From contig OY820579.1 of assembly GCA_963681965.1 (NCBI GenBank), positions 2,256,835 to 2,320,834 of the forward strand: a stretch of 64,000 nucleotides of DNA, in the 5' to 3' direction. The stretch is from a bacterium. Lineage in GTDB: Bacteria; Electryoneota; JAOADG01. This document shows positions 5,060 through 43,396 of this stretch, piece by piece. The notes beneath the pieces are model-generated. The model saw only the letters and a program-made list of their open reading frames with translations. It was not told the DNA's origin and made no database searches. Position 1 is the stretch's first letter, and every line of letters starts with the position of its first letter. The position numbers were made by a program, and so were the translations under genes.

Positions 5060-7048
5060 ATGGAAACTGCCGTTAACACTGCCAACTGGAATTATTTGAT
5101 CCTCATCCCGCTGCTTCCGCTCGCGGGCGTGTTGATCAATCTCCTGTGCTACAAAGCGAAATTGCCCGAGAAAGCAGTCGGCTGGTTCGCTTCATTGACA
5201 GTACTTTCCAGTTTCGCATTGTCGCTGATGGCATTCATCCAACTTCGCGCATTGACACCCGAACATCGTTCGATCGAAGTCGTCTTCCTGAAATGGATCG
5301 AAGTCGGTTCGCTCCATCTCGATTGGGCAATCCTGCTCGATCCTCTCTCGTCGCTGATGATGCTGATCATCACCGGTGTCGGCGGTGTGATCCATATTTA
5401 CTCCATCGGCTATATGCACGGCGACAAGAGCTTCAGCCGCTTCTTCATCTATCTCAATCTATTCGTCTTCTTCATGCTCTGGTTGGTGATGGGTAACTCC
5501 TTCGCCACCATGTTCATCGGTTGGGAAGGGGTCGGGCTCTGTAGCTACCTGCTCATCGGTTTCTGGTTCACCGATATGGCGAAAGCGAGTGCCGGAAAGA
5601 AAGCATTCGTCGTCAATCGCATCGGCGACTGGGGCTTTTTGCTGGCAATGCTGCTGCTATTCACGACATTCGGTTCGCTGCAATTCACCAAAGTGTTACC
5701 CGCTGCATTCGAGCAATATCCCAATGGCGCTCCGGTTATCACCGCGATCGCGCTGTTGTTCTTTGTCGGTGCTTGCGGTAAGTCGGCTCAGATTCCGCTC
5801 TACATCTGGCTCCCCGACGCCATGGCAGGTCCCACGCCGGTTTCTGCCTTGATCCATGCCGCCACGATGGTTACCGCCGGTGTCTATATGGTAGCGCGTG
5901 CCAATATCCTCTTTTCGCTGTCGCCGATTGCGATGCAGACGGTTGCAACGATCGGAGCGCTGACTGCGCTGTTTGCCGCGACGATCGGTTTGCGGCAGTG
6001 GGATATCAAGAAAGTGCTCGCCTATTCCACCGTGTCCCAGCTCGGATTCATGTTCCTCGGTGCCGGCGTCGGTGCCTATGAGACCGGTATCGCGCATGTT
6101 ATGACGCATGCGTTCTTCAAAGCCTGTTTGTTCCTCGGTTCCGGTGCCGTCATTCACGCAATGGAGCATGCGTTCCATCACAGCAACGTGCACCTCGATC
6201 CGCAGGATATTCGCTATATGGGTGGGTTGCGCAAAAAGATTCCACTCACCTTCTGGACATTTTTGGTTGCGACGGTCGCAATTGCCGGTATCCCCGGATT
6301 CGCGGGCTTCTTCAGCAAGGACGAAATTCTTTGGAAGACCTATGCCAGCGGTCATGTGGTGCTCTGGATTATCGCCACAATCACTGCCGGACTGACCGCA
6401 TTTTACATGTTCCGGCTCGTCTTCCTGACTTTCTTCGGCACTTTCCGGGGTGGCGCCGACGTCGAACCGCACGTCAAGGAAGTATCGCCACTGATGACCG
6501 GTGTCCTGATCGTGTTGGCATTCTTCTCGGTCTTTGGTGGTCATTTGGCAATTCCCGAATCGCTTGGTGGTCATTTCGTTATCGGCGAGTGGTTGGAACC
6601 GGTCGTAGCGAATTCCCGCTCGCTGGCAACGCTCGCATTCTATAAAGAGCACCATCCATTATCGTTGGAACTCGGCTTGATGGCGCTTTCCGTCGTCGTC
6701 GCACTGATCGGTATCGGCATCGCCGCGCTGCTCTACTGGCGTAAGAAGCAGGATCGCGAAGTATTGCTCCGCCGCGCTACCGGCTATGCCAATGTGCTGG
6801 AAAATAAATATTGGGTCGATGAGATCTACGAAATGCTTATCGTCAAACCGCTCTACAATCTGTCGGTGTTCTTCTGGAAAGTTGCCGACGGGATGGCGAT
6901 CGACGGATTCATCAACGGTACCGGTCGCTTGGTCGATGCGATCGGCGGTAGTTTGCGCCGGCTTCAAACCGGATTTATTTCCAATTACGCTTTACTCATG
7001 TCGGTCGCGATCGCATTTGTCGTCGGCTGGATGTTGTTCGGACGCTAG
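5060..7048 (+). CDS. nuoL: NADH-quinone oxidoreductase subunit L
   Basis: 662-aa antiporter-like subunit with typical NuoL/ND5 sequence. Confidence 0.9.
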   Translation: METAVNTANWNYLILIPLLPLAGVLINLLCYKAKLPEKAVGWFASLTVLSSFALSLMAFIQLRALTPEHRSIEVVFLKWIEVGSLHLDWAILLDPLSSLMMLIITGVGGVIHIYSIGYMHGDKSFSRFFIYLNLFVFFMLWLVMGNSFATMFIGWEGVGLCSYLLIGFWFTDMAKASAGKKAFVVNRIGDWGFLLAMLLLFTTFGSLQFTKVLPAAFEQYPNGAPVITAIALLFFVGACGKSAQIPLYIWLPDAMAGPTPVSALIHAATMVTAGVYMVARANILFSLSPIAMQTVATIGALTALFAATIGLRQWDIKKVLAYSTVSQLGFMFLGAGVGAYETGIAHVMTHAFFKACLFLGSGAVIHAMEHAFHHSNVHLDPQDIRYMGGLRKKIPLTFWTFLVATVAIAGIPGFAGFFSKDEILWKTYASGHVVLWIIATITAGLTAFYMFRLVFLTFFGTFRGGADVEPHVKEVSPLMTGVLIVLAFFSVFGGHLAIPESLGGHFVIGEWLEPVVANSRSLATLAFYKEHHPLSLELGLMALSVVVALIGIGIAALLYWRKKQDREVLLRRATGYANVLENKYWVDEIYEMLIVKPLYNLSVFFWKVADGMAIDGFINGTGRLVDAIGGSLRRLQTGFISNYALLMSVAIAFVVGWMLFGR

Positions 7049-7062
7049 GGGTGTACTAAAGC

Positions 7063-8565
7063 ATGATGCCGTTACTCAGTACACTGATTATGATCCCGCT
7101 GATTGGCGCAGTAGCCATGCTGCTCCTGCCTCGACGCGCCGAAACACTCCAGCGCGGGGTTGCGTTCCTGACCACCGCAGTGACCTTTGCACTGAGTCTG
7201 GGTCTCTGGTTCGGTTTCGATCGGAATACGCCCGGCTATCAGTTTATGGAGCGCTTCGAGTGGATTCCGTCACTTGGTATCACTTACATCGTCGGTATCG
7301 ACGGTATCAGCCTCCTGCTGATCCTGCTAACCACGCTGCTGATGCCGATCTGCATCCTCGCGTCGTGGGATCCGATCAAGACCCGCATCAAAGAATATTA
7401 TTTCAGCTTCCTGCTGCTTGAAGCCGCCATGATCGGCGTGTTTGCCGCACTCGACCTGTTCCTGTTCTATGTCTTCTGGGAATCGGTATTGATCCCGATG
7501 TACTTCCTGATCGGTATCTGGGGTGGTAAAAATCGGCTTTATGCCGCCATCAAGTTCTTCTTGTACACGTTGGTCGGCAGTTTGCTGATGTTGATCGGAA
7601 TTCTGTATCTCTATTTCAATTACGGGCACACCTTCGATCTGATTCATCTGTCTGCGATGTTGAAGCAACACCCGATTGCGTCGAATGTACAAATCTGGTT
7701 GTTTGCCGCATTCTCACTCGCATTCGCAATCAAAGTCCCGATGTTCCCATTCCACACTTGGTTGCCGGATGCGCACACCGAAGCGCCGACAGCCGGTTCG
7801 ATCATTCTGGCTGGTGTCCTGTTGAAGATGGGTACTTACGGTTTCGTGCGATTCTCGATTCCGCTGTTTCCCGATGCCACTAGCGTACTATCGCCGATTG
7901 TGGTTATTCTAGCCATCATCGGAATTATCTACGGCGCGCTTGTCGCAATGGTGCAGACCGATATCAAACGTCTGGTCGCATATTCATCGGTGAGTCACCT
8001 CGGCTTCGTGATGCTCGGACTCTTTGCATTGAATCATCAGGGTCTTTCCGGTGCCGTGCTGCAGATGGTCAATCACGGACTTTCCACTGGCGCCCTGTTT
8101 TTATTGGTCGGTGTTATTTACGAACGGCGCCATACCCGCGATATCGAAGCCTACGGCGGTATTGCCGCATCGATACCGGTATTCTCGACGATCTTCTTGA
8201 TTGTCACCATGTCGAGTATCGGTTTGCCGACTCTGAACGGCTTTGTCGGCGAATTTCTAATCCTGAATGGTGCCATGCAGGCGAGTTGGCAGTGGACGGC
8301 ATGGGCTGCCACCGGCGTGATTCTCAGTGCGATTTACATGCTATGGATGGTCCAGCGAGTATTCTTCGGACCGATCAAGCATGAAGAAAATCGCAATCTG
8401 AAAGATATGAATTGGAAGGAATTGGCTGCGGTGATTCCGCTACTGATCTTCATTGTGTGGATCGGTATTTATCCCGATACCTTCTTAAAAGTGTTGGATC
8501 TCCCGGTCGCGGATTTACTCTCGAACCGCACCGGAATTCATTTACAAACTTTATTACTGAAATAG
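7063..8565 (+). CDS. nuoM: NADH-quinone oxidoreductase subunit M
   Basis: 500-aa antiporter-like subunit (NuoM/ND4). Confidence 0.9.
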   Translation: MMPLLSTLIMIPLIGAVAMLLLPRRAETLQRGVAFLTTAVTFALSLGLWFGFDRNTPGYQFMERFEWIPSLGITYIVGIDGISLLLILLTTLLMPICILASWDPIKTRIKEYYFSFLLLEAAMIGVFAALDLFLFYVFWESVLIPMYFLIGIWGGKNRLYAAIKFFLYTLVGSLLMLIGILYLYFNYGHTFDLIHLSAMLKQHPIASNVQIWLFAAFSLAFAIKVPMFPFHTWLPDAHTEAPTAGSIILAGVLLKMGTYGFVRFSIPLFPDATSVLSPIVVILAIIGIIYGALVAMVQTDIKRLVAYSSVSHLGFVMLGLFALNHQGLSGAVLQMVNHGLSTGALFLLVGVIYERRHTRDIEAYGGIAASIPVFSTIFLIVTMSSIGLPTLNGFVGEFLILNGAMQASWQWTAWAATGVILSAIYMLWMVQRVFFGPIKHEENRNLKDMNWKELAAVIPLLIFIVWIGIYPDTFLKVLDLPVADLLSNRTGIHLQTLLLK

Positions 8566-8588
8566 TGCAACATTAGCGAAACAGATCG

Positions 8589-10040
8589 ATGACTGAAACA
8601 CTACTCACGCAACTGACGACATTGGGTCCGACACTATGGATTGCGGCACTGGCTATGCTGGCGCTGGTGATCGATTTGATCGTTCCCAAACATGAGCGCG
8701 ATATTAAATCAGTCGTGTTAGTCGGTCTCGCTCTGATTTTCCTCTTTACATTCAAGCGGGTTGGCAGTACCGGCGCTGCTTTCTACGGGTCGATCGTCCA
8801 AACCGATTTCACGACTTTCTTCGACTTGTTGTTTACCGCGATTGCCTTTTTTGTGATCATTCTTTCCGGCCCATATTTTCAGCGCACTGGTATGAAGCTG
8901 CTGGAAACGATGGTGCTGATGCTGTTTGCGACCTCCGGCGCTATGCTGATGACGCTCGCGAACGACATGCTCATTCTCTTCCTCGGTCTCGAATTGATGT
9001 CGATCTGTCTCTATGTACTGGCAGGAATGTTGCGAAATCGCGAGAAATCGAATGAAGGAGCGTTGAAATATTTCCTGTTGGGAGCATTTGCTACCGGGTT
9101 CTTCCTCTACGGTATCGCGCTGCTCTACGGTATCTCCGGTTCGACGTTGTATGGCGATATTTCCGCGTGGGTGCTGGGTCGCAATTTCTCGGTCGGTGGA
9201 CTGTTCTGGGCAGGTATCGGATTATTGCTGATCGGATTTTTCTTCAAGACTGCGACAGTACCCTTCCATTTCTGGGCACCCGATGCCTACGAAGGGGCAC
9301 CGACGCCCGTCACAGCATTTTTCAGTGCTACCCCGAAAGCCGCGGCATTCGCCGCTTTGATTAAAGTATTTGGCGTGGCGCTGCCGTCGGTGAATAGTGA
9401 AATATCCGATCTACTCGCGCTGTTTGCCATTCTGACGATGATCATCGGGAACTTTGTCGCGCTGCAACAATCTTCGGTCAAACGCATGTTGGCATATTCG
9501 TCGATTGCCCATGCCGGTTATTTACTGGTTGCAGTGGTCTCGGCAAGCAGCGACGGCTATTCCGCACTGATGCTGTATCTCGCGGCGTATGCGGCTACCA
9601 ATCTGGGTGCCTTCACCATTGCCTATCTGGTGAATCGCAAGAACGAAGGAAATTATAGTTTCGATAATTTCAACGGTCTGGGTGCGAAACATCCCTATTA
9701 TGCCATGATGATGGCGATCTTTATGATCTCGCTGGCGGGTATTCCCCCGACTGGTGGATTCATGGGGAAATACTACATCTTCTTTGCCGCGGTTCGTAGC
9801 GGTCACCTCTATTTGGCGATCGCGATGGCGCTGATTTCGGTTGTGTCGGTGTATTATTATCTTCGTGTGATTGTCCACATGTACATGAAACCGGCAGCAG
9901 AGAATTACGAATCGATCGACACGAACAAGGTGGTGGGGATTGCGTTACTTGGATGTGTCGCAGTGATCCTGCTGATCGGTGTCATGCCAGAGCCGTGGTT
10001 CCAGTGGCTGCAGGCGAGTGTCTGCGCCATCGGCATGTAA
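8589..10040 (+). CDS. nuoN: NADH-quinone oxidoreductase subunit N
   Basis: 483-aa antiporter-like subunit (NuoN/ND2); last gene of the operon. Confidence 0.9.
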   Translation: MTETLLTQLTTLGPTLWIAALAMLALVIDLIVPKHERDIKSVVLVGLALIFLFTFKRVGSTGAAFYGSIVQTDFTTFFDLLFTAIAFFVIILSGPYFQRTGMKLLETMVLMLFATSGAMLMTLANDMLILFLGLELMSICLYVLAGMLRNREKSNEGALKYFLLGAFATGFFLYGIALLYGISGSTLYGDISAWVLGRNFSVGGLFWAGIGLLLIGFFFKTATVPFHFWAPDAYEGAPTPVTAFFSATPKAAAFAALIKVFGVALPSVNSEISDLLALFAILTMIIGNFVALQQSSVKRMLAYSSIAHAGYLLVAVVSASSDGYSALMLYLAAYAATNLGAFTIAYLVNRKNEGNYSFDNFNGLGAKHPYYAMMMAIFMISLAGIPPTGGFMGKYYIFFAAVRSGHLYLAIAMALISVVSVYYYLRVIVHMYMKPAAENYESIDTNKVVGIALLGCVAVILLIGVMPEPWFQWLQASVCAIGM

Positions 10041-27677: not shown

Positions 27678-30600
27678 TTACTTCATGAACACCACTTTAC
27701 GCGTGGTCTTGAAGTTGTCGGCGGTAATCATCACGTAATACACGCCGCTGGCGTTGCCGCTGGCATTCCAATGCAGAGTATAGGTTCCGGCATCGAGGTT
27801 CCCTTGCGATAATACTGCTACTTCGCGACCGGTTTGATCGAACACCTTCGCCGAAACAAAACCGCTCTTCGGAACACTCAGTTTCATCGTCATCGAGGGA
27901 TTGAACGGATTCGGATACGCTTCCGAAACCACGTAATCCTTCGGTAACATCTGGGTCGCCGGTTGATCGACACCAGTGAATCCATCGGGAGTTTGCGTAC
28001 TGAATCGGATGATGTGGTTGTTGTGCAACTCTTCCGCACCCGGAGATGCGACGTGTGCAAACAACAGATCCAAACCGTCGGTGTGTTCCCAATTCATGAT
28101 GCCCATCGTTGTGTAGTTGTTGGTCTGATCGACATCGGATGAAGTGTGATACTGGAAATCGATAATGTTGTCGCTCGATGGTCCACGACGATCGCCGTAA
28201 AGAATGATTTCGAATTTCTGTCGGATCGGATTCGTTTCAATACCGTACCGCGAATATGCTTCCGCCCATTCGATGATATATTTCCGATCGCCGGGGGTGT
28301 TGTCCATTCGATAGAACAATCGGACTCGACCGCTATCAGCCGGATTCGAACCCTTCAAGTCGTCCCAGTTCGCCGCAAGCAACGTGCGCGGTCCCTGAGA
28401 ATTCGGCAGCGTCCAGTTGTAGAAATCATACATCCAGGTGCTGTCGAAGCTGACCCAACCATTCGAACAAATCGACAAGAATTGATTGTAAGTCCGACCG
28501 TAGAATGTGAATGGGAACGGTATCGCTTGCACATACGTGGTATCGTCTTTCAGAATGAGCGAAGTCCCGTTACCGCCCAGTGCCGTATCCAATTCGATCC
28601 AGTTATAAGTCGGTGTCGGCCACGTTCCGGTCGACGGTACGTCGATCTCTTCGTAGGCGTAGTAGCCGTAATTGTCCGGTCCGGTCGGCATCGTGCTGGC
28701 ACGGGTTCCGCAAGTGATATTGAACCACGTGGTCAATGTATCCGAACCACCGATGATCCAATTCAACATCCGAATGGGAATGATGTGTCCGGGTAGAATG
28801 GATTGGGCGATTTCCGCATCGAATGCTACAAAACCGCTATCGCGAATCGCCATATAATACGCCGCCGGTGTCGTGATATTCATGCCATTCGAGAAGGTGA
28901 CAAACTGGTAGTTGCATGCCGGAATGGCAGCGTTACCCTCACTCTTGAGATGCACTTGAATTGTCGTCGAGCGGCTGACACCCGGTGTTAACGACCCACT
29001 CTCGACGACGATCCCGGAGATCCGCGGTAATGCCCAAGCGACTGGCATGGCGAAATCGACGGCACCCGAAGCGAACGTCAAGCGAAGCGATTCCGGTGTG
29101 CGATCTGCCAGGGATACGACTTTCACGCGATAAGTCAGGGATGTGGTAGCACCGGCATTCACCGTACCGGCATTGGAACTATTGTTGAGAATGACCAACC
29201 GGTTGCGCGTATTCGTTTGCGATAAAATCGCCTGCGAAGCGGCTGCGGTCGTTCCCACATTCTTGATTAAGATGTTGATATCGCCTTCGACACCCGGGCT
29301 GGGCAGTGTATTGGGAATATTGAAGAACACTGAATCGACCCGGAACTGACCAATCAAAGGATTATTAGTTTGAATGTAGTTGATAACTGGACGGTAGTTA
29401 CCGCCGCGAACCGCGATTCTAACGGTATCGTTTGCGACGATCCGCAATGGTAACGTGGCATATCCTTGAGCATCAGTAAGCGAGACTGCTGGATTAGCAC
29501 CAGCATTTCCGACGATCAGCGCTGCAACCATATTCGGCAAAGGATTACCTGTTCGCTGATCGACTGCGCGAATCGTCATCGAAGACGAAGCTGGATTCAA
29601 TGTCGTCGGGAATGTCACTTGCATCGTGTCAGGTGTTTTGTACCATAACGTCAATGACGGATCGCCAAGGATGTTGTAGAACCGGAAATATTGTTCGACT
29701 GCCGTCATCTCATTCGGGAAACCTTGATACACTTCCAATTTTCCGCGCAATGTTGCCGGACCCAGTTTATTGAGACCGTCATTCAGCCAGCCGTGCAGCA
29801 ATCCAGCCAGAATTGGGTTGTTATAGCGTGTGCTGGTATGCAAGTGGGCTGCACCGAAGAAAGCCGGACCGCATTTCGGTACACTTGGCGAACCGGTTTC
29901 AACCCATGCTTCGCCGAAGCATTGGTTGCCGTCGACTTGCGAATTTAATGCGGCATACCGACCATTCTGACAGACGATCGATAGCATTACTGCATCGTTT
30001 CTGGTGACATTAGCCAAGTCACCTCGCTGTAATCGAGGGTAGAGTGGACCTTGGCTATCGCCCCAGCCGCGATAAGTGATTAGCGAAACACCTTGATTGA
30101 TTAACGCAAGAATCGAATCAGTACCTGGTGCCGGTTGCATCGGATAAAGATAGGTACTGACATTGTAACCAAAGTCACGCAACATCTGTGCTGCCCAACG
30201 GGTATTTTCCGTGGGAGTGATCGGTGGGCTACCCGTGTCGGAATAGTTGCCGGCGAAGCAGAATGCTTTATTCATGTAATTCGTATTCGCTGGGTTTCCA
30301 GTTCCGGGGGAATTTTGATGTTGTTGTGTTTTGTTCACGATCGTAGCAAGTCCTGTAGTAGAACCATAGGAGATTCTACCCAGAAATGCTTCCGGCCAGA
30401 AGTCAGAACCATCCAGCAATACATAATTCAAGTCGGAAGGAACCGTTTCCGCTGCCGAAACGGTAAACGGAAACGTCGGGACATTGTCCAATCGGTCGGC
30501 ATCGCCGATAATCGCGACATATTCGACTGGAAGCGTATGTGCCAACGAATTGTAGACATCGGCTATCAACAATTTGATCTGGTCGCCATTGGCTCCGGAC

Positions 30601-31391
30601 GGAATCAAGATCGTAGCGACATTATATCCTTCCATTTTCTTCAAATTGGTAAACGTGAGAAGTTGCGAATTATAAGACGCTGAGGAAGGACGCACGATCA
30701 CGTAAGTACCCGGTCGCCACAACAGGGATCGTCCCATCGAGAATGGGTTATAACCCAAAAACATCGTTTCATAGATCCCGTGATAGGATGGTGTGATCGG
30801 ACCGGTTAATGTCGGTCCTGCTACAGTCGCAGTCAACGTGATCGTTAGTTCGCTGATCGCTTCGATGGTGCCGTCGGATAGTTGGCGCAACGGATACACG
30901 GTCACCGGAACGACGCCGAAATCCTTGAAGACACCCGGTTCGCCGACAGTCACGCGCGGCATCTCGCTGGATTTCGCCAACGGGGTGTTGGGGAATTCCG
31001 GATCGCTGGCGATCGCAACTGCGCCGCCGAGTCGGTCCGTCGTGATATGTTCCGTACGTCCGGCAACGACACTGGCAGTCGCTTTCACCGCAAAATTGAA
31101 GGGGACGAATACGGTCACGCCGGAAATATCGGGGGTACCTAATTTCGGAAACGCTTCGTGTTGTCCACCAACGCGAAGAGCAACGCCGTTGGTCGCTTTC
31201 TCAACCGCGAAGCCATTCAACTTCACTGTGAAAGTGACCGTGGTTGCGCTGCGATTGAGTTGATCGACGTTGGGGGATGGGGTGCCGACTGCCGCGGATG
31301 ACGCTGCATCGGACAGCCAGACGGTTTGCACGGGAGCAGCAAATGCGCCGAGTGCAACGATTAACAGGATCGAAAGAAGTAACCTTCTCAT
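27678..31391 (-). CDS. Peptidase C25 (gingipain-like) family secreted protein with T9SS C-terminal sorting domain
   Basis: Signal peptide; C25-like core around YVAIIGDADRL and the later region with conserved His and Cys; C-terminal KVFDQTGREV...GVYYVMITADNFKTTRKVVFMK. Confidence 0.6.
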   Translation of the reverse strand: MRRLLLSILLIVALGAFAAPVQTVWLSDAASSAAVGTPSPNVDQLNRSATTVTFTVKLNGFAVEKATNGVALRVGGQHEAFPKLGTPDISGVTVFVPFNFAVKATASVVAGRTEHITTDRLGGAVAIASDPEFPNTPLAKSSEMPRVTVGEPGVFKDFGVVPVTVYPLRQLSDGTIEAISELTITLTATVAGPTLTGPITPSYHGIYETMFLGYNPFSMGRSLLWRPGTYVIVRPSSASYNSQLLTFTNLKKMEGYNVATILIPSGANGDQIKLLIADVYNSLAHTLPVEYVAIIGDADRLDNVPTFPFTVSAAETVPSDLNYVLLDGSDFWPEAFLGRISYGSTTGLATIVNKTQQHQNSPGTGNPANTNYMNKAFCFAGNYSDTGSPPITPTENTRWAAQMLRDFGYNVSTYLYPMQPAPGTDSILALINQGVSLITYRGWGDSQGPLYPRLQRGDLANVTRNDAVMLSIVCQNGRYAALNSQVDGNQCFGEAWVETGSPSVPKCGPAFFGAAHLHTSTRYNNPILAGLLHGWLNDGLNKLGPATLRGKLEVYQGFPNEMTAVEQYFRFYNILGDPSLTLWYKTPDTMQVTFPTTLNPASSSMTIRAVDQRTGNPLPNMVAALIVGNAGANPAVSLTDAQGYATLPLRIVANDTVRIAVRGGNYRPVINYIQTNNPLIGQFRVDSVFFNIPNTLPSPGVEGDINILIKNVGTTAAASQAILSQTNTRNRLVILNNSSNAGTVNAGATTSLTYRVKVVSLADRTPESLRLTFASGAVDFAMPVAWALPRISGIVVESGSLTPGVSRSTTIQVHLKSEGNAAIPACNYQFVTFSNGMNITTPAAYYMAIRDSGFVAFDAEIAQSILPGHIIPIRMLNWIIGGSDTLTTWFNITCGTRASTMPTGPDNYGYYAYEEIDVPSTGTWPTPTYNWIELDTALGGNGTSLILKDDTTYVQAIPFPFTFYGRTYNQFLSICSNGWVSFDSTWMYDFYNWTLPNSQGPRTLLAANWDDLKGSNPADSGRVRLFYRMDNTPGDRKYIIEWAEAYSRYGIETNPIRQKFEIILYGDRRGPSSDNIIDFQYHTSSDVDQTNNYTTMGIMNWEHTDGLDLLFAHVASPGAEELHNNHIIRFSTQTPDGFTGVDQPATQMLPKDYVVSEAYPNPFNPSMTMKLSVPKSGFVSAKVFDQTGREVAVLSQGNLDAGTYTLHWNASGNASGVYYVMITADNFKTTRKVVFMK

Positions 31392-32217
31392 CGGTGTTTC
31401 CTCCTCTTGGTGAACAGTCCCGGTATGAAACGAAAACTTCCGACAAAAAAACGCAAGCCGAAAATCAATCCGCTCAGTCGATCCGGGGGCAGCGGTTGCA
31501 CCTGTTTATGATCTCGCCACTGTAGCCGCGAAAGTTTCGAGAGAATCTCAATACTACAGTTACAATATGCATTCAAAGCCGGATAAAAGCAATATGCAAC
31601 AACGATTGCGAATGAAAATCAATCTTGATAACACATTTGCACACAACTTCCCAGAAGTGATTACTATTTATACAGATATTAGCTACTTACCGGAGGTAAA
31701 GGATGCTCTCTGCAGATGATCGGTTGATTTGTCGTTGCGAGGACTGCAGCGAAGGAACATGCGAAGCATTTCCGAAGCGGAAGGACGAAGCAATCTATCT
31801 TGAATCCTGTTTTCTCTAGTAGGGGTGGGTCCCCGCGCCCGCCCGTTCTTGTATCTTTATTTCTCTTTTCCCAATCCCCAATGCCTATTTCTCCATCACC
31901 CATTCTATGCGTCAGGCGCTGCCTGCCGCTTGGGGCGAATGCGATTCGCCCCTACGGAAAAAACGCGGACTAAAGTCCGCCGCTACCATGATGAATTGTC
32001 AGGCTGAAGCCTAACTTCCGATTTCAAGAGACAGATACACCGAACCTGCGATTCGCTTCCTTTCCGTAGGTCAGAACTTGTTCTGACCATTTCTTGTATT
32101 TTTTTTCTCTTTTCCCACCACCTACAACCCACTACCCACCACCCGTTTGGTTGATTTGTCGTTGCGAGGACTGCAGCGAAGGAACATGCGAAGCATTACC
32201 TCAGTTTCTTCCCGACG
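31392..32217. repeat. REP-like hairpin cluster
   Basis: Two copies of the ~70-nt cgttgcgagg element, gtaggggtgggtccccgcgcccgcccg, ccgtaggggcgaatcgcattcgcccc (reverse), gcggactaaagtccgccgctacc, gtaggtcagaacttgttctgacc. Confidence 0.75.
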
Positions 32218-33017
32218 GTGCATCTCTCCTACAAATTGAGCAAACTAAATGAATTGCAATTGAGTTACAGTCGGCGCGTGCGGCGACCGGATGGTGAGGA
32301 TTTGAATCCATTCCCGGAATATCGCGATCCGTTGAATGTCTGGGCGGGAAATCCGAAACTGTTGCCGGAATATGTGAATGTGCTGGAACTCGGTTGTCAA
32401 TATCTGAATGGCGGATTGATGTTGGTACCGGCGCTGTTCTACCGCAACACGAATAATCGCTTTACCCGGGTCACGCAGACACTGCACGATTCGATCGTCT
32501 TGACGACCATGGAAAATCTGGCTTCCGATCAATCCGGCGGTATCGAATTGAATGTGTCGTGGAATCATCAGAAATCGTTTTCGCTTCACGGATACAGTAG
32601 TGTGTTTTTCGATCAGATCGATGCCACCAATCTTAACAATACAATGGAAAGAAGAATGTTACGACGTGGACCAGCAATATCACGATGGATGTCAATTTGA
32701 CCGAGACCAGCCGGTTTCAACTCAACTCGAATTACAATTCGGCACGATTGACGGCGCAAGGGAAAAACAAACCGTCGTATTCGCTCAATTCCGGTTTTCG
32801 ACAAGAATTGTTTGAAGGAAAATTGACGATCACTGCGACCGTCACGGATATCTTCAAGACGATGAAACGGGAATTCGAGTTGAATATCCCGACGCTGCAG
32901 CAAACATCGGTGAATAAGCGCGACTCGCGCGTAATGTACGTCGGATTGAATTATCGCTTCGGTTCGCAGAAGAAGAAAGCGAAAGAAGACCAGATTAAAT
33001 ACGATGACGGGTTGTAG
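32218..33017 (+). pseudogene. Remnant of an outer-membrane beta-barrel protein gene (C-terminal ~265 codons, frameshifted)
   Basis: No signal peptide or N-terminal domain; reading frame switches near 32650-32700 between track ORFs 32218-32700 and 32685-33017; ends with beta-barrel-like ...YVGLNYRFG; 5' side abuts the repeat cluster. Confidence 0.45.
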
Positions 33018-33040
33018 AATAGATCGCCGTAAAATGTATA

Positions 33041-33068
33041 CGGGCGCTTTGCAGCGCCCGTTTTTTTT
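33041..33068 (+). terminator. Rho-independent terminator
   Basis: cgggcgctttgcagcgcccg hairpin followed by an 8-T run. Confidence 0.6.
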
Positions 33069-33134
33069 GTGTTTCTTACACTCGTTCGAATTTCGTGGTG
33101 AAGTGCCGCAGGATCGGTGGTTCGTAGGTGGTCC
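33068..33134. repeat. Left direct repeat: diverged duplicate of the tnaA 3' end (putative att remnant)
   Basis: gtgtttcttacactcgttcgaatttcgtggtgaagtgccgcaggatcggtggttcgtaggtggtcc is ~92% identical to 36341-36405; on the minus strand it still encodes ...TYEPPILRHFTTKFERV-stop. Confidence 0.7.
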
Positions 33135-33201
33135 TTAAAAGCTAGTTCAACATTCGAACTTAGAATATCAATTAATTGATTGCTAGATAATCTGAATTGG
33201 A

Positions 33202-34011
33202 TTAAATGTAAGGATCGTCCAATTTGCAGTAACTAGCATCAAGAATATTGGCTTTACAACAATAATTCATTAACCAAGTTACATGTTCTTCATCGATGGG
33301 TGGGATATCCTTCTTGAACAAAACGGCTCGATCCAATCTTCCGATCCACTCTCGCGCTTTAGTTACTAATTGAACCTCGATGATACGCGATTCTTGGATC
33401 ATAATTAAAAAATGGATAGCACGATAATTAGTGTCGTGGGAGTACAATTTCGGATTGAAATAATAATTTCTGCATCGATAAATTTTTCGATAAAAGTCAC
33501 GCCATATTTTTACTCCTAATTGCGCAAGTTCGTTAGGAGTCTGGACGACTATTCGAAATCGAACCAAGTCCCAAATATCGTATAAATATTCAGGATAATA
33601 CCCTAACCGTTTTCGTTTCTCAATCGATTTTGCGATTGATTCATCTGATTTCAAGTTACCAAATAAATGTTCGAGCGGAACTTGCGATTTCTCGATATAA
33701 TCAAGTAACACGAGTCGGGAAAAGTCAAAGACTTTCTGTTTCTCATTTTTATCCATCACAAAATCAGACCAGTCAGCGATATTTTGACTAATTCGAAAGC
33801 CTGTTTCCGGGATAACTATTAACTTTCTAGATAATAGATCTACTGACTGATCGTGAAGCAATTGAAAATTGGGATCTGCTGAGTTTGTTCCATTCTCAAT
33901 TTTATTGCCTAACTCTAAAAATTCGGTTCGATCTTTGTCAGAAAGTGAGCACCAGAATTGTTTGAACCATTTGTCATGGCACTCGCAGTATTCGATATGT
34001 CTTTGTAACAT
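33202..34011 (-). CDS. RelA/SpoT-like (RSH/small alarmone synthetase-like) nucleotidyltransferase-fold protein
   Basis: Ordered motifs with RelQ-like spacing: SIAKSIEKRKR, DIWDLVRFRIVV, NYRAIHFLIMI, IEVQLVTKAREW...LFK. By-eye match, not HMM-verified. Confidence 0.5.
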   Translation of the reverse strand: MLQRHIEYCECHDKWFKQFWCSLSDKDRTEFLELGNKIENGTNSADPNFQLLHDQSVDLLSRKLIVIPETGFRISQNIADWSDFVMDKNEKQKVFDFSRLVLLDYIEKSQVPLEHLFGNLKSDESIAKSIEKRKRLGYYPEYLYDIWDLVRFRIVVQTPNELAQLGVKIWRDFYRKIYRCRNYYFNPKLYSHDTNYRAIHFLIMIQESRIIEVQLVTKAREWIGRLDRAVLFKKDIPPIDEEHVTWLMNYCCKANILDASYCKLDDPYI

Positions 34012-34031
34012 TGAGCACTCAAAATTATTAA

Positions 34032-34652
34032 TTACGAGAAATAGATATCATTCTTTGCAAATGTTGATCGAACAGAGTCCTTTCTCTCAACAACAGCAAT
34101 TTTTTTTCCTTTCTTATGAAGTAATAGAAATTCTTTGTTTACTAAATCTTTAATGCGATAATACATTTCACTCGGATTTTGAACTTTGTCAACTTGCCAT
34201 CTCTGAAAATTCGTAAATAAATCTTCAAGAGTGATCTGATCTAATGAATACTCGTATATAAATTCAATTATCTTTTTCTGAGTAAAAGATAATTTTCTAT
34301 AAGAATCCACTAATTTCAGTTCTTGATCTGCAACACTAGGAGCACTCTCGATGGGTATTTTAGATACTGATGTAACAGAATAAAGCGAATATTCGTTAGG
34401 TTTTTGTTTTAAATTAGATTTATGTGAAAGATATGTGAACAAAATCACGAAAAATAATCCAATTAATAATTCAAACACACCTATAAATACTATTAACCCA
34501 TTTGGGTGAGCACGATAAATTATATTATTTGTTTGATTATGCCATTCGAAAATTCCTAATAAAATCATAACTGTTCCACCAAGAACAAATATTGCATCGA
34601 TTCTTGCCTTAAAAAGACTTTTTAAAAGTTCGAACATAATGATCCCTTTCAA
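34032..34652 (-). CDS. Membrane protein: two N-terminal TM helices plus ~110-aa C-terminal winged-helix-like domain (paralog 1)
   Basis: Shares with the next gene the pattern ELLK..KA..D.I.VL.G..M.LLGIFEW..Q.NNII.R.HP and a C-terminal block ...YYRIKDL...G..IAV.E. Confidence 0.55.
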   Translation of the reverse strand: MKGIIMFELLKSLFKARIDAIFVLGGTVMILLGIFEWHNQTNNIIYRAHPNGLIVFIGVFELLIGLFFVILFTYLSHKSNLKQKPNEYSLYSVTSVSKIPIESAPSVADQELKLVDSYRKLSFTQKKIIEFIYEYSLDQITLEDLFTNFQRWQVDKVQNPSEMYYRIKDLVNKEFLLLHKKGKKIAVVERKDSVRSTFAKNDIYFS

Positions 34653-34703
34653 AATAATAAATTAGAGATTAATCGCTTTAAATTGAAATGAATTACCGGT
34701 TAA

Positions 34704-35249
34704 TTAAGAGCACAATATATTCTTTTTTTCCAAAGTTAACTGAACAAAACCAATTTTCTCAATGACAGCTATATTTCTTCCAATATTATGAAGATTAATG
34801 AAACCATTATATTTTAGATCTTTAATTCTATAATAAAATTCGTTTTTGTTTTGAATAATTCCAGGTCTCCAGGCTTGAAAACCATCGAAAAGCACTTCGA
34901 GAGAAATTTCATTTAATAAATGTTGGTAAATAAATTGTACAATCAGCATTTGTGTTAATGTTAAATTGTGATAAGATAAGACTAACTGTTCTTCATAGTC
35001 TCGTTTAGGACTTGCCATCTCCGAATGAACTCTCTGTTGAATATAGAAATTAATAATATAGAGTGAAATACCAATTAATGTTAACAGAATCCCAATAAAA
35101 ATGACAAAACTATGAGGATGTGTTCGAATAATAATGTTATTTAATTGACCATTCCATTCAAAAATACCAAGCAGCAACATCGAAGAACCAACAAGCACTA
35201 AGATGACATCAACTTTTGCTTTAAGAACGCCTTTAAGTAGTTCTAGCAT
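34704..35249 (-). CDS. Membrane protein: two N-terminal TM helices plus C-terminal winged-helix-like domain (paralog 2)
   Basis: Paralog of 34032-34652; start overlaps the stop of the upstream NTase gene (35243-35249). Confidence 0.55.
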   Translation of the reverse strand: MLELLKGVLKAKVDVILVLVGSSMLLLGIFEWNGQLNNIIIRTHPHSFVIFIGILLTLIGISLYIINFYIQQRVHSEMASPKRDYEEQLVLSYHNLTLTQMLIVQFIYQHLLNEISLEVLFDGFQAWRPGIIQNKNEFYYRIKDLKYNGFINLHNIGRNIAVIEKIGFVQLTLEKKNILCS

Positions 35250-36130
35250 GATAAAGCTCGTCTTGGAAGAGAAATATGATTTTTTTCGATAAGTACAATT
35301 TGAGTACTAAATTTTATCTTTACTCTTATAGCGCAATCGGCTGAAAAGCAATTTGGGTGGTTGCCCTTAGTCGACTCAAATAAAAGAATATTTTCTTTCA
35401 TATGAATTGGAAGCGATGATTGTAATGGCATTTGATAATAATTTTGGACGTACTCCTTCATACAACAAAAATAAAAATAGTATGCTGTGGCTTGTTGAAT
35501 CGGTAGAGTGCTGACTTGCAGTGAATCAATAATTTTGTGTTCTTTTAACCACCAATCACATAAAACAAGAAACTCGTAATCAACCAATCCCCCAGCACCG
35601 CTTTTAAAATCCCAATAATGTGGCGATTTTGGGTCGTCGTATTCATCGCTGCGATGTGGGTTTCCGAGGAAGAATCTGTGCAAATTATCGAATGAAGTAT
35701 TTTTCAACCAATACTTGAATTTACTAATAAATTCTTGGTAGATCGACTGGTTTCCTGCAAGAAATCGAAGGTGAGGAAAAGAGACAAGTAATGGAAAAGA
35801 GTAGGTGTCGATTGCTTTATCGAGAGAATTAATGATGAAATGCGTTGGATGATTTGGTGTGTATCGTTTAAGTAGCGATTTTATCAAATCGCGATCAATG
35901 TTTGGTGATCGATAAAGAACGAAGAAATCAATATCGGAAAACTGATTTGGATGACCGCGAGCGTAGCTTCCCCTTAAACAGATAGCAAAAGTTTGATTAT
36001 TCAAAAATGAAGAAATATGCTCTTCGGAAAGATAGGCGTGAAGTTGTTCAACTCGTTTTAAGAATTTCTCTTGATATGTCAGCGATAATTTTAAGAATGT
36101 TGTCGGGTTGTTTGTGATAAACATAAACAA
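35243..36130 (-). CDS. Nucleotidyltransferase with Pol-beta-type motif and GlnD/GlnE-like second motif
   Basis: GSYARGHPNQFSDIDFFVL (GS-x10-DxD) and ~120 aa later DFKSGAGGLVDYEF, resembling the GlnD/GlnE uridylyl/adenylyl-transferase signature. Confidence 0.55.
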   Translation of the reverse strand: MFMFITNNPTTFLKLSLTYQEKFLKRVEQLHAYLSEEHISSFLNNQTFAICLRGSYARGHPNQFSDIDFFVLYRSPNIDRDLIKSLLKRYTPNHPTHFIINSLDKAIDTYSFPLLVSFPHLRFLAGNQSIYQEFISKFKYWLKNTSFDNLHRFFLGNPHRSDEYDDPKSPHYWDFKSGAGGLVDYEFLVLCDWWLKEHKIIDSLQVSTLPIQQATAYYFYFCCMKEYVQNYYQMPLQSSLPIHMKENILLFESTKGNHPNCFSADCAIRVKIKFSTQIVLIEKNHISLPRRALSC

Positions 36131-36300
36131 TACCTATGCAAACTTCATTCGATCACAGTAGTAAAAAAATCCATAAATAGTTTCTTCATGAGGCAATTAG
36201 TATTCTTGTAAAGATAATAATAAACTAAACAAATTCAAAATGGTATTTGGTAAAATATAAACAATCAACTTACATGTTGACGAGATATCTAAAAAATAAT

Positions 36301-36320
36301 TCCGGTAAAACTATACCGGA
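36301..36320 (-). terminator. Candidate terminator for tnaA lying inside the island
   Basis: Hairpin ccggtaaaactataccgg immediately 3' of the tnaA stop, followed on the minus strand by a T-rich run. Confidence 0.4.
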
Positions 36321-36338
36321 ATTATCAATTAAGTTAAA

Positions 36339-36405
36339 TTGTGTTTCTTACACCCGTTCGAATTTTGTGGTGAAGTGCCGCAGGATCGGCGGTTCGTAAG
36401 TGATC
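36339..36405. repeat. Right direct repeat: functional 3' end of tnaA
   Basis: gtgtttcttacacccgttcgaattttgtggtgaagtgccgcaggatcggcggttcgtaagtgatcc; encodes ...ITYEPPILRHFTTKFERV-stop in frame with tnaA. Confidence 0.7.
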
Positions 36406-37715
36406 CGCAGACCTTTGATTTTGTGAGCGCGATCTTTCAACTTCTTCATCCCGTCGGCAACAAATTCGAGATGCGAATTCGTGTATGCGCGTCGCGGAAC
36501 GCAAAGCCTTAGCAATTCCAATTTCGGATAGCGGTTTTCGCGGGTTACCGGATCGCGATCCGCCAGTACCGTGCCAATTTCCACACCACGGACACCCGCC
36601 TCGATATAGGCTTCCACGCCCAGCACCTGCGCCGGGAACGCTTCGCGCGGAATATTCGGCAACAATTTCAAGGCATCGACGTAGATCGCATGTCCACCTG
36701 CCGGCTGTACGATCGGAATGCCGCGTTCCAACAAGAGATCGCCGAAATATTTCACCTGAGCCAACCGGAATTCGAGGTAATCTTCTTCAACACCTTCGCG
36801 TAGACCGACCGCCAATGCTTCCAAGTCGCGTCCCGATTGACCGCCGTACGTCACGAACCCTTCAAACAGAATTCCGAAAATCGAGCACTGACGATACAGC
36901 TCTTCGTCGCGACAGGCAATAAAGCCACCGATATTCACCAGCGCGTCCTTCTTCGAGGACATCGTGCAACCATCTGCCATGGAAAATAGTTCGAGGGCAA
37001 TTTCTTTGACCGATTTCTGTGAATATCCATTTTCGCGCTGTTGAATGAATTTGCAATTTTCGGCATAGCGCGCGGCATCGATGAATAATTTCACGTCATA
37101 CTTGTCGCACAAGGCTTTCACGGCACGGGCATTTTCCATCGAGACTGGTTGTCCGCCGGTGCTGTTACAGGTAACCGTGAGTAATACGAAGGGAATTAAT
37201 TTCTTCGGAGCATATTCCTGCAAAACCGATTCCAGTTTTTTCAGGCAGACATTCCCTTTGAACGGATGGATCAGCTCCGGATCGAAAGCGTTGTCGTCGG
37301 TGCAGTCGATCGCGTGCGCTTTGCGATATTCGATGTGTCCTTTGGTCGTATCGAAATGCGAATTGCCGGGAATGACTTCTCCTTCGTGAACCAATACACT
37401 ATGCAGTACGTTTTCGGCAGCACGCCCTTGGTGGGTGGGGAGGACGAAGGGAAAACCCATGATATCCTGAACCGCTTTTTGGAAATTGTAGAATGAGCGC
37501 GCACCGGCATACGATTCGTCGCCCATCATCAACGCTGCCCACTGCGCATTCGACATCGCGCCGGTACCACTGTCCGAGAGCATATCGATGAAGACATCTT
37601 CCGAATGCAAGCCAAATAGATTGTAGCCGGTTTCCTTGATTTTTTGTTCCCGCTCGTCGCGCGGCAGGAGCCGGATCGGCTCAATCATCTTGATTCGGTA
37701 GGGTTCTGGAAACAT
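36348..37715 (-). CDS. tnaA: Tryptophanase / beta-eliminating lyase family (PLP-dependent)
   Basis: PLP-lysine motif SSKKDALVNIGGF; overall TnaA/TPL-like sequence; start set to MFPEPYRIKMIEP. Confidence 0.85.
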   Translation of the reverse strand: MFPEPYRIKMIEPIRLLPRDEREQKIKETGYNLFGLHSEDVFIDMLSDSGTGAMSNAQWAALMMGDESYAGARSFYNFQKAVQDIMGFPFVLPTHQGRAAENVLHSVLVHEGEVIPGNSHFDTTKGHIEYRKAHAIDCTDDNAFDPELIHPFKGNVCLKKLESVLQEYAPKKLIPFVLLTVTCNSTGGQPVSMENARAVKALCDKYDVKLFIDAARYAENCKFIQQRENGYSQKSVKEIALELFSMADGCTMSSKKDALVNIGGFIACRDEELYRQCSIFGILFEGFVTYGGQSGRDLEALAVGLREGVEEDYLEFRLAQVKYFGDLLLERGIPIVQPAGGHAIYVDALKLLPNIPREAFPAQVLGVEAYIEAGVRGVEIGTVLADRDPVTRENRYPKLELLRLCVPRRAYTNSHLEFVADGMKKLKDRAHKIKGLRITYEPPILRHFTTKFERV

Positions 37716-37916
37716 CGTAACTCCGTTCAATAGTACTTCCCAGCGACACCTTCTTACCGAAAAATCCCGGAAGAAAGTGGTGAAACTTGGTTGATTCGCA
37801 GTATCCGGCAGCGAACTGACATTGTCCGGCAACCTGCCGGGTAAAATATAACCTCGAAAACCGCGATTCCGAAAAGTTTGTTTTTTATCGAAATACCTTT
37901 GAGTTTGCGATACCGA

Positions 37917-43245: not shown

Positions 43246-43314
43246 GAAATTTGTCCTAATGGGTGAATGATTCCGTTCGCATTTGGCAGTACGAACGAAG
43301 AAATAAAACGGGCG

Positions 43315-43396
<82 letters not shown>

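Follow-up and report, generated by a model that had tools for sequence, protein, structure and literature searches.

Duplicated membrane-hairpin winged-helix genes between a nucleotidyltransferase and a RelA/SpoT-type enzyme: a conserved, apparently mobile cassette with a possible role in anti-phage defense

Nucleotide-transferring enzymes have been described in bacteria as partners of toxins or channels. In the type VII toxin-antitoxin system HepT/MntA, the nucleotidyltransferase (NTase) MntA polyadenylylates a tyrosine of HepT (PMC7641770), and proteins in which a minimal nucleotidyltransferase (MNT) is fused to a HEPN domain also exist (PMC13000451). In the Hailong system, as summarized in the review PMC13434031, HalB makes a tyrosine-primed oligo-dA that gates the effector HalA and holds it closed. 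RelA/SpoT homologue (RSH) enzymes act, in known cases, on 3'-hydroxyls of nucleotides or RNA ends (10.1101/2021.04.30.441581; PMC11782079). Here we describe a locus in which an NTase and an RSH enzyme stand on either side of a tandem gene pair. It lies in a 64,000-nucleotide stretch of bacterial DNA (hereafter, the window; positions 2,256,835 to 2,320,834 of contig OY820579.1), where four close-packed minus-strand genes, 33202-36130, encode in order an NTase, two paralogs (A and B) that combine a hairpin of two transmembrane (2-TM) helices with a C-terminal winged-helix (wH) domain, and a divergent RSH protein. The interpretation that we prefer, and to which we give an even chance of being right, is that A and B are tandem duplicates of the middle gene in a mobile, abortive-infection type anti-phage cassette in which the NTase acts as a guard.

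Paralog A (gene 2a; 34704..35249, minus strand, 181 amino acids) consists of the N-terminal 2-TM hairpin and the C-terminal winged helix (residues ~84-181), and paralog B (gene 2b; 34032..34637, minus strand, 201 amino acids from ATG 34637) consists of the hairpin, a linker 20 amino acids longer than that of A, and the winged helix. A previous sequence-only reading of the window had called the two proteins tandem paralogs, and BLASTP bore this out (41% identity, 201 columns, E=2e-50). The motifs that it quoted (M.ELLK..KA..D.I.VL.G..M.LLGIFEW..Q.NNII.R.HP; F.Q..I..FIY ... YYRIKDL ... IAV.E) were recovered in a MAFFT alignment, the two transmembrane helices that it assigned to each protein correspond to two Kyte-Doolittle hydrophobic segments (~residues 13-31 and 48-66) in both A and B, and the flanking NTase and RSH genes were confirmed by matches to PF01909 and PF04607 above their cut-offs. 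B keeps every residue conserved in the family. A and B are closer to each other (44.6%) than to any other relative (at most 35%), so that the duplication is, judged by these distances, lineage-specific, and within the family surveyed two separate wH-effector genes occur only in the window. The listed open reading frame (ORF) of B, 34032..34652, opens with TTG 34652; ATG 34637 is most likely the true start, because it is preceded by GAAAGGGA, a Shine-Dalgarno-like motif, and because a separate gene call on the source contig also gave 201 amino acids. The end of the NTase gene and the start of A share 7 nt, an overlap that suggests translational coupling of the two genes, and 20 nt separate B from the RSH gene. 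No further copies of any of the four gene families were present in the 64-kb window. The four genes sit in a segment of 31-33% GC content, versus ~50% for the genome.

The cassette recurs at about 20 independent loci in metagenomes and metagenome-assembled genomes (MAGs), with a size of ~2.7-3.3 kb, three or four genes and a constant order: the NTase, then a 2-TM or TIR module joined to the wH domain, then the RSH enzyme. The loci were found through the neighborhoods of wH proteins, the neighborhoods of RSH homologues and two degenerate-DNA-pattern scans, and were annotated with hidden Markov models (HMMs) built here. Wherever an RSH protein with a seed-HMM score of 198 bits or more had upstream DNA, a wH gene lay directly upstream of it, with the NTase gene before the wH gene where the contig extends that far (the window and L003, L004, L005, L008, L009, L011, L013, L014, L020, L022, L024, L027/30, L035, L040-L043, L046, L049, L051, L052 and L053); the co-occurrence that had been proposed as a check thus holds, in constant order, in other genomes. 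The single exception, L034 (RSH 191 bits), carries IS5-family transposase fragments (1779-2536) where the wH and NTase genes were expected, and is probably a disrupted cassette. The pattern WD..R[FY]R ... CRNYY was scanned over metagenome contigs and GTDB genome contigs, and three of its ten genome matches (L047, L048, L050) were set aside as chance; a search with a three-sequence RSH alignment returned nothing in genome contigs. RSH orthologues of other cassettes are 31-38% identical to the window protein, and the one NTase compared is 25% identical. Taken together, the cassette is conserved and rare, comprises three genes and is apparently horizontally mobile.

Complete cassettes were found in MAGs of Pyrinomonadaceae, Bryobacteraceae, Bacteroidetes and Myxococcota, and in one Nanoarchaeia bin. 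The last of these, a complete NTase / TIR-wH / RSH cassette (L049, 1150-3874), lies on a contig of 9.3 kb that was assigned to Candidatus Nanoarchaeia (DPANN), and reflects either a genuine archaeal copy or an error of binning.

The C-terminal domain of A and B was predicted by the sequence-only reading to be winged-helix-like, and this prediction is now supported by a structural model. Relatives of the paralogs were gathered by an exhaustive HMMER search, which gave 73 relatives and a 74-sequence wH alignment; a word-indexed homologue search returned only A itself when A was used alone, and three proteins with the 74-sequence alignment. The AlphaFold2 (AF2) model of the ~100-residue domain built from this alignment (m474fa3c45c27) has a mean predicted local distance difference test (pLDDT) score of 95.1 and a predicted template modeling (pTM) score of 0.86. 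Its elements (H18-30, E34-36, H37-47, H55-67, E71-75, E81-85, with additional N- and C-terminal helices) follow the alpha1-beta1-alpha2-alpha3-beta2-beta3 topology with a beta-hairpin wing, and a fold search found it to resemble solved winged-helix domains. A sequence search of the PDB with the paralog and wH profiles gave only chance matches at E<=10, and full-length A modeled by AF2 from a two-sequence alignment reached a pLDDT of 59, giving no usable 2-TM model. Across the 74 sequences, R61 is invariant and T19, Q20, Y28, E57 and L65 are near-invariant; in the order T19, Q20, Y28, E57, L65 and R61, these positions are residues 99, 100, 108, 137, 145 and 141 of paralog A.

Five arrangements precede or include the wH domain among the 73 relatives: 2TM, TIR, NTase-2TM, NTase-TIR and a 2TM-wH-wH form. 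About half of the relatives have the 2-TM module of the window type, in which the motif [FL]P.p.N.W.p.LR is conserved in the periplasmic loop of only ~15 amino acids between the two helices. About 20 have instead a TIR module of ~190 amino acids, recognized by PF01582/PF13676 on P0019, P0073 and the middle genes of L009, L011 and L040, in which a C..E(Y/W) motif is conserved (consensus ...tp.Yf.s..c..ey..f, 15 sequences); the TIR identity of these homologues from outside the window is clear at the sequence level, and NADase activity is predicted for them. Fusions of the type NTase-2TM-wH were found in P0017, P0039 and L013, and an NTase-TIR-wH fusion of 619 amino acids in P0073. The N-terminal module is, by this pattern, a swappable putative effector part on a constant wH domain. 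Because a TIR domain is its alternative, the 2-TM hairpin is best read as the effector and the winged helix as the regulatory part, an interpretation that supports and sharpens the earlier suggestion of sensors, antitoxins or effectors. The closest parallel to the doubled wH-effector of the window is P0051 (L043, 842-1789), a protein of 305 amino acids with a 2-TM hairpin and two tandem wH domains, which has NTase and RSH genes on either side. The duplication in the window and the doubled domain of P0051 point to pairwise action of the wH domains and to a possible heteromer of A and B.

The first gene (35243..36130, minus strand, 295 amino acids) encodes an NTase of the Pol-beta superfamily (PF01909, 28.3 bits versus a cut-off of 21), with the motifs RGSYARG...SDIDFF and KSGAGGLVDYEF. 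In the family, these take the form RGS.ARG....SDID and, in the helical domain, K.G.GG..D.EF, and residues G54, S55, S65, D66, D68 and G181 are invariant. When 15 family members were searched singly against NCBIfam, GlnD was matched by 12 (best E=1.1e-10), MntA by 12, HalB by seven and GlnE by four, all of these matches lying under the curated cut-offs and resting in part on the generic GS...DxD motif; in Pfam, DUF294 was matched by seven of the 15 and GlnD_UR_UTase by two, again under the cut-offs. The window protein itself scored 12.8 bits against HalB (NF051895; E=0.065, cut-off 190, over 25 active-site residues; best E in the family 2e-3), 18.3 bits against MntA (cut-off 60) and at best 16.5 bits against the GlnD/GlnE models (versus 799), and it lacks the HD, ACT and second AT domains. 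HalB chains 9dbh/9dbj also turned up in the PDB with the NTase profile. By these scores, the NTase is a relative, not a member, of the GlnD/GlnE/DUF294, MntA and HalB clade. GlnD and GlnE transfer nucleotides onto protein tyrosines.

The third gene of the canonical order (33202..34011, minus strand, 269 amino acids) encodes a divergent protein of the RSH synthetase fold. PF04607 matches residues 120-233 with 32.1 bits (gathering threshold 27, E=1.5e-7), and the N-terminal ~110 amino acids form a family-specific extension; a likeness of this N-terminal region to the first wH helices was judged to be chance, and the stretch concerned aligns with the canonical RSH helix before G.K...S. The G.K...S, D..RFR (with the Mg-binding Asp), Y...H and E.Q motifs are all present in the family, in which G118, K121, D148, R151, N182, Y196, R197, E212 and Q214 are invariant among 59 sequences and H200 is kept in at least 90%; the canonical EIQIRT motif reads EVQLVT, with another residue in place of its Arg. 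The conserved positions are those by which RSH synthetases bind ATP, Mg and the acceptor, and because they are kept, we expect the enzyme to be an active pyrophosphokinase. A PDB search with the family profile matched the small alarmone synthetases RelP and RelQ (E=7e-7 to 1e-4) and none of the solved structures of toxic small alarmone synthetases (toxSAS), and a search with the single RSH sequence gave nothing meaningful.

A sister clade of RSH proteins (117-164 bits against the seed HMM) occurs without NTase and wH partners (L015 1328-2131, L033 5390-6193 and L036 880-1683; also L017, L021, L028, L031, L032 and L038). At three of its loci the RSH gene directly follows a gene for a 151-residue RsbW-like anti-sigma-factor/HATPase protein, and at others it follows genes for small proteins of unknown kind. 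The clade may represent RSH-based modules of another type.

The surroundings of several cassettes are consistent with defense. The TIR-type cassette of L042 (7215-9828, in the region 6043-9828) comes right after a cI-type repressor gene (HTH_3 + Peptidase_S24) and is read in the same direction; the repressor gene faces a P22 Cro-like gene, and the prophage around them also has DnaB, a DNA methylase, RecT, DUF3799, HNH and an integrase. The rexAB genes of phage lambda occupy the matching position, and the place of this cassette is, by analogy, a rexAB-like 'moron' position. At L003, DUF2130 and then a SIR2-HerA pair follow the cassette, and at L013 it stands among HipAB, a Phd antitoxin and GmrSD. 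The GC content of the cassette is lower than that of its flanks in five of the six loci tested, and the neighboring genes differ at every locus. From these features, we infer a defense operon of the type that couples nucleotide enzymes with a TIR or TM effector.

In the guard mechanism that we propose, the wH domain, which would be cytoplasmic, serves as the regulatory receiver of the effector. The NTase would constitutively write a mark, either a nucleotide or an oligonucleotide, which the wH domain carries or binds and which would keep the effector silent; MntA silences HepT, and the oligo-dA made by HalB silences the HalA channel, in this manner. Infection would disturb, remove or outcompete the mark; in the effectors thus freed, 2-TM hairpins would come together and depolarize the membrane, and TIR domains would use up NAD+. 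The RSH enzyme would be the third obligate partner, possibly an infection-responsive switch acting on a 3'-hydroxyl (of a free nucleotide, of the NTase product or of an RNA end), or else it might edit the mark, make a competing ligand or provide a second toxic arm. In this genome, A and B would most likely assemble into a hetero-oligomer in which their wH domains are paired. We favor this scheme because the nearest relatives of the NTase write protein-linked nucleotides, because MntA and HalB hold a toxin or channel off by such marks, because fusions of the NTase with the effector-wH protein recur (a precedent being the fused MNT-HEPN proteins, PMC13000451), and because the NTase and paralog A appear to be translationally coupled.

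Several observations weigh against the guard scheme or against the defense label that it assumes, in addition to the sub-threshold standing of the NTase matches. The NTase might inhibit or activate, both directions of control being compatible with the sequence, and the RSH enzyme could be a switch, an editor or a second toxic arm. The candidate acceptor tyrosines of the wH domain vary: Y28 is present in 68 of the 74 sequences, and Y60 in 60, with Phe in 11. The domain is also near neutral (median isoelectric point (pI) 7.6; 8.4 in A and 8.8 in B) and therefore gives no strong pointer to nucleic-acid binding, and repeats resembling an operator were not identified. RSH tblastn found no copy in sequenced phages (INPHARED) or plasmids (PLSDB), nor did a copy turn up in IMG/VR contigs. 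At L009, L011 and L041 it lies among housekeeping or metabolic genes with no recognizable defense island. PADLOC v2 (2023) had no match for A, B or RSH, and for the NTase only PDC-S09, a minimal-NTase motif; nor was there a model for the wH protein or the RSH clade in Pfam, NCBIfam 20 or PADLOC v2. The defense label itself rests on context and domain logic.

The alternative that survives best, possible in our judgment though doubtful, is second-messenger immunity of the CBASS/Pycsar/Thoeris type, in which, upon infection, one of the two enzymes, or both acting in sequence, would make a diffusible nucleotide such as an alarmone-like pppNpp or a short linear oligonucleotide. This product would bind the wH domain and switch the effector on, and the enzymes would be sensors and writers, not guards. 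The swap of TM and TIR modules on a constant sensor domain is a hallmark of signaling systems, the RSH enzyme keeps its catalytic residues and has its closest matches in the alarmone synthetases RelP and RelQ, and the polar cluster T19/Q20/K21/E57/R61/K63 on a neutral domain would suit a small-ligand site rather than a DNA-backbone surface. These points are offset by the covalent NTase-effector-wH fusions, which would be unusual for a messenger synthase acting in trans, and by the nearest relatives of the NTase, which modify proteins and make no free messengers; two different nucleotide enzymes would also be left unexplained, and we know of no winged helix that acts as an alarmone receptor in a defense system.

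A further possibility, which we regard as tentative, is a three-component immune pathway with two nucleotide-transfer chemistries and one mark: the NTase and RSH might together write and edit it (attachment of a nucleotide or oligonucleotide to a tyrosine, and 3'-hydroxyl pyrophosphorylation), and the wH domain would read it and gate the hairpin or the TIR NADase. Such a two-enzyme mark, if real, would provide the first signaling or regulatory writer of the RelA/SpoT family in TIR/TM-effector defense as well as the first winged-helix receiver of such a kind, and could make the cassette categorically new.

We consider it unlikely that the cassette is a toxSAS-type toxin-antitoxin module, in which the RSH toxin would act by tRNA 3'-CCA pyrophosphorylation or (pp)pApp synthesis and the upstream proteins would neutralize or regulate it, the NTase by modifying RSH or its product and the wH protein by binding RSH or by repressing the operon as a membrane-tethered repressor. 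Winged-helix antitoxins and autorepressors, such as AbiEi, are common, and the order of an upstream regulator and a downstream toxin fits. RSH toxins with an adjacent neutralizer are documented and serve phage defense (10.1101/2021.04.30.441581; PMC11782079; PMC9712102). However, an interchangeable NADase-type TIR domain or 2-TM hairpin on an antitoxin is hard to rationalize, the RSH profile matched RelP and RelQ and none of the solved toxSAS structures, and the existence of the sister RSH clade without these partners indicates that the enzyme is not obligatorily neutralized by them. A non-immune role, in which a membrane-anchored wH transcription factor relays an envelope signal and alarmone synthesis and nucleotidylylation tune metabolism in the manner of GlnD and GlnE, is very improbable: the NTase is GlnD/GlnE-like, three cassettes (L009, L011, L041) lie among metabolic genes and the window genes come just after a tryptophanase-like gene, but the patchy distribution and the GC content below that of the surroundings indicate horizontal acquisition, TIR-domain versions exist, the immunity region of a prophage contains one copy and a second adjoins SIR2-HerA, the periplasmic loop is very short, and neighbor genes change from locus to locus. 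Both of these last readings are less likely because they leave the TIR/TM swap unexplained, and a simple membrane-tethered transcription factor was rejected, given that TIR versions and NTase fusions exist.

With respect to its position in this genome, the cassette (33135-36338) forms an islet of 3.27 kb with one copy of a 68-nt direct repeat (93% identical) at each edge. Copy 1 (36339..36406), the left boundary, is the true 3' end of a gene for a tryptophanase-like beta-eliminating lyase (36348..37832, minus strand), and comprises its last ~17 codons, the stop and 9 nt; copy 2 (33067..33134), the right boundary, is an orphan duplicate of the same 3' end. Both copies encode the same last 17 residues, TYEPPILRHFTTKFERV, followed by the stop, with three differences that are all synonymous. 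A terminator-like hairpin (36295..36326, minus strand) with a 13-pair stem and then a T-run, supplied by the islet itself, lies directly after the lyase stop, and it is followed by an AT-rich leader (36131-36294) that is, on a reading of the sequence, the putative promoter region of the operon. After copy 2, a terminator scan found a GC-rich bidirectional hairpin (33040..33061), which probably served originally as the terminator of the lyase gene. This layout is apparently the mark of an element that integrated site-specifically at a gene's 3' end: the repeats resemble the attL/attR of a 3'-end-integrated element, and no integrase is encoded in the islet. No flanking direct repeats were found around the cassette at five other loci compared, and such repeats, present at the window only, were rejected as a general feature of the cassette.

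Next to the islet, two adjacent short ORFs of 160 and 110 amino acids (32218-33017, plus strand) both match the C-terminal barrel of a TonB-dependent receptor (PF00593/PF14905), apparently what is left of a gene after truncation and frameshift; no long ORF is present in ~750 bp upstream (31450-32200), and this decayed region suggests a variable hotspot. A secreted protein of 1237 amino acids encoded farther on (27678-31391, minus strand) combines Peptidase_C25 (gingipain-like) with Por_Secre_tail, a type IX secretion sorting domain, which suggests a host lineage with a type IX secretion system (FCB group). The sole Rfam or ARAGORN match in the window is a tRNA-Leu (anticodon TAG) at 43314-43396 on the minus strand.

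If the cassette is anti-phage, it would represent a new architecture among the nucleotide-based immunity systems of bacteria, in which a RelA/SpoT-type enzyme, so far known in defense only as a stand-alone toxin, is paired with a GlnD/MntA/HalB-like NTase and a winged helix serves exchangeable TIR or membrane effectors as their receiver. The guard scheme, if true, would extend the guarding by a constitutive nucleotide mark known from Hailong and HepT/MntA; should the messenger alternative hold instead, a new second messenger would be revealed. The cassette is small and directly clonable, and its natural fusions and doubled wH variants are handles for the dissection of its components. The sequence-only reading had stated that this pairing had not been seen described, and the open-access full-text literature likewise yielded no description of the NTase/effector-wH/RSH combination, an earlier account elsewhere being possible; the cassette is apparently undescribed.

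Membership of the cassette in Hailong, HepT/MntA, CBASS, Pycsar or Thoeris was rejected, the defining components having been tested for and found absent, and the likenesses to these systems are therefore partial. Like Hailong, in which a Pol-beta NTase is encoded together with a small membrane effector whose regulatory domain is cytoplasmic (Tan et al. 2025, as summarized in PMC13434031), the cassette places such an NTase next to a small hairpin protein, but it adds an obligate RSH gene, TIR alternatives and a winged-helix receiver. HalA was unmatched by the paralog and wH profiles in the PDB, where its presence in the copy used was unchecked, and was unlisted in the wH fold search. The HepT/MntA system likewise has an NTase next to, or fused with, a protein that is held inactive by tyrosine nucleotidylylation (PMC7641770; PMC13000451). 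The cassette differs from it in the RSH gene and in an NTase of ~290 amino acids with a GlnD/GlnE-type helical domain (K.G.GG..D.EF), not a minimal MNT of ~100-140 amino acids, and Pfam detected no HEPN domain in the four window proteins. GlnD, GlnE and DUF294 proteins are the best-scoring characterized relatives of the NTase and have the GG..D.EF motif of the helical domain in common with it, whereas the cassette enzyme, at the length just given, is without HD, ACT, CBS or second NTase domains and has no nitrogen-regulation context.

With the toxSAS and other RSH modules (FaRel2, PhRel/Phrann gp29-gp30, CapRelSJ46), the cassette shares a small stand-alone enzyme of the RSH synthetase fold, residence in mobile elements or prophages, partner genes and a link to phage defense (10.1101/2021.04.30.441581; PMC11782079; PMC9712102). 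Its partners are an NTase and a TM/TIR-wH protein, in contrast to the small antitoxin, small alarmone hydrolase (SAH), Panacea protein or fused pseudo-zinc-finger domain (pseudo-ZFD) of those modules, and its RSH enzyme has the ~110-residue N-terminal extension and is closest to RelP/RelQ, at only E~1e-6. CBASS, Pycsar and Thoeris resemble it in coupling a nucleotide-processing enzyme with an effector whose killing part may be TM or TIR while the sensor domain stays the same. They differ in that the sensor of the cassette is a winged helix, its two nucleotide enzymes are unrelated and its NTase is often fused to the effector; Pfam and PADLOC found no CD-NTase, PycC cyclase, ThsB, SAVED, STING, SLOG or cyclic nucleoside monophosphate (cNMP)-binding domain in the window cassette. 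By analogy, the cassette would work most like Hailong and HepT/MntA if the NTase is a guard, or like CBASS and Pycsar if a messenger is made, with the addition, in either case, of a toxSAS-type enzyme.

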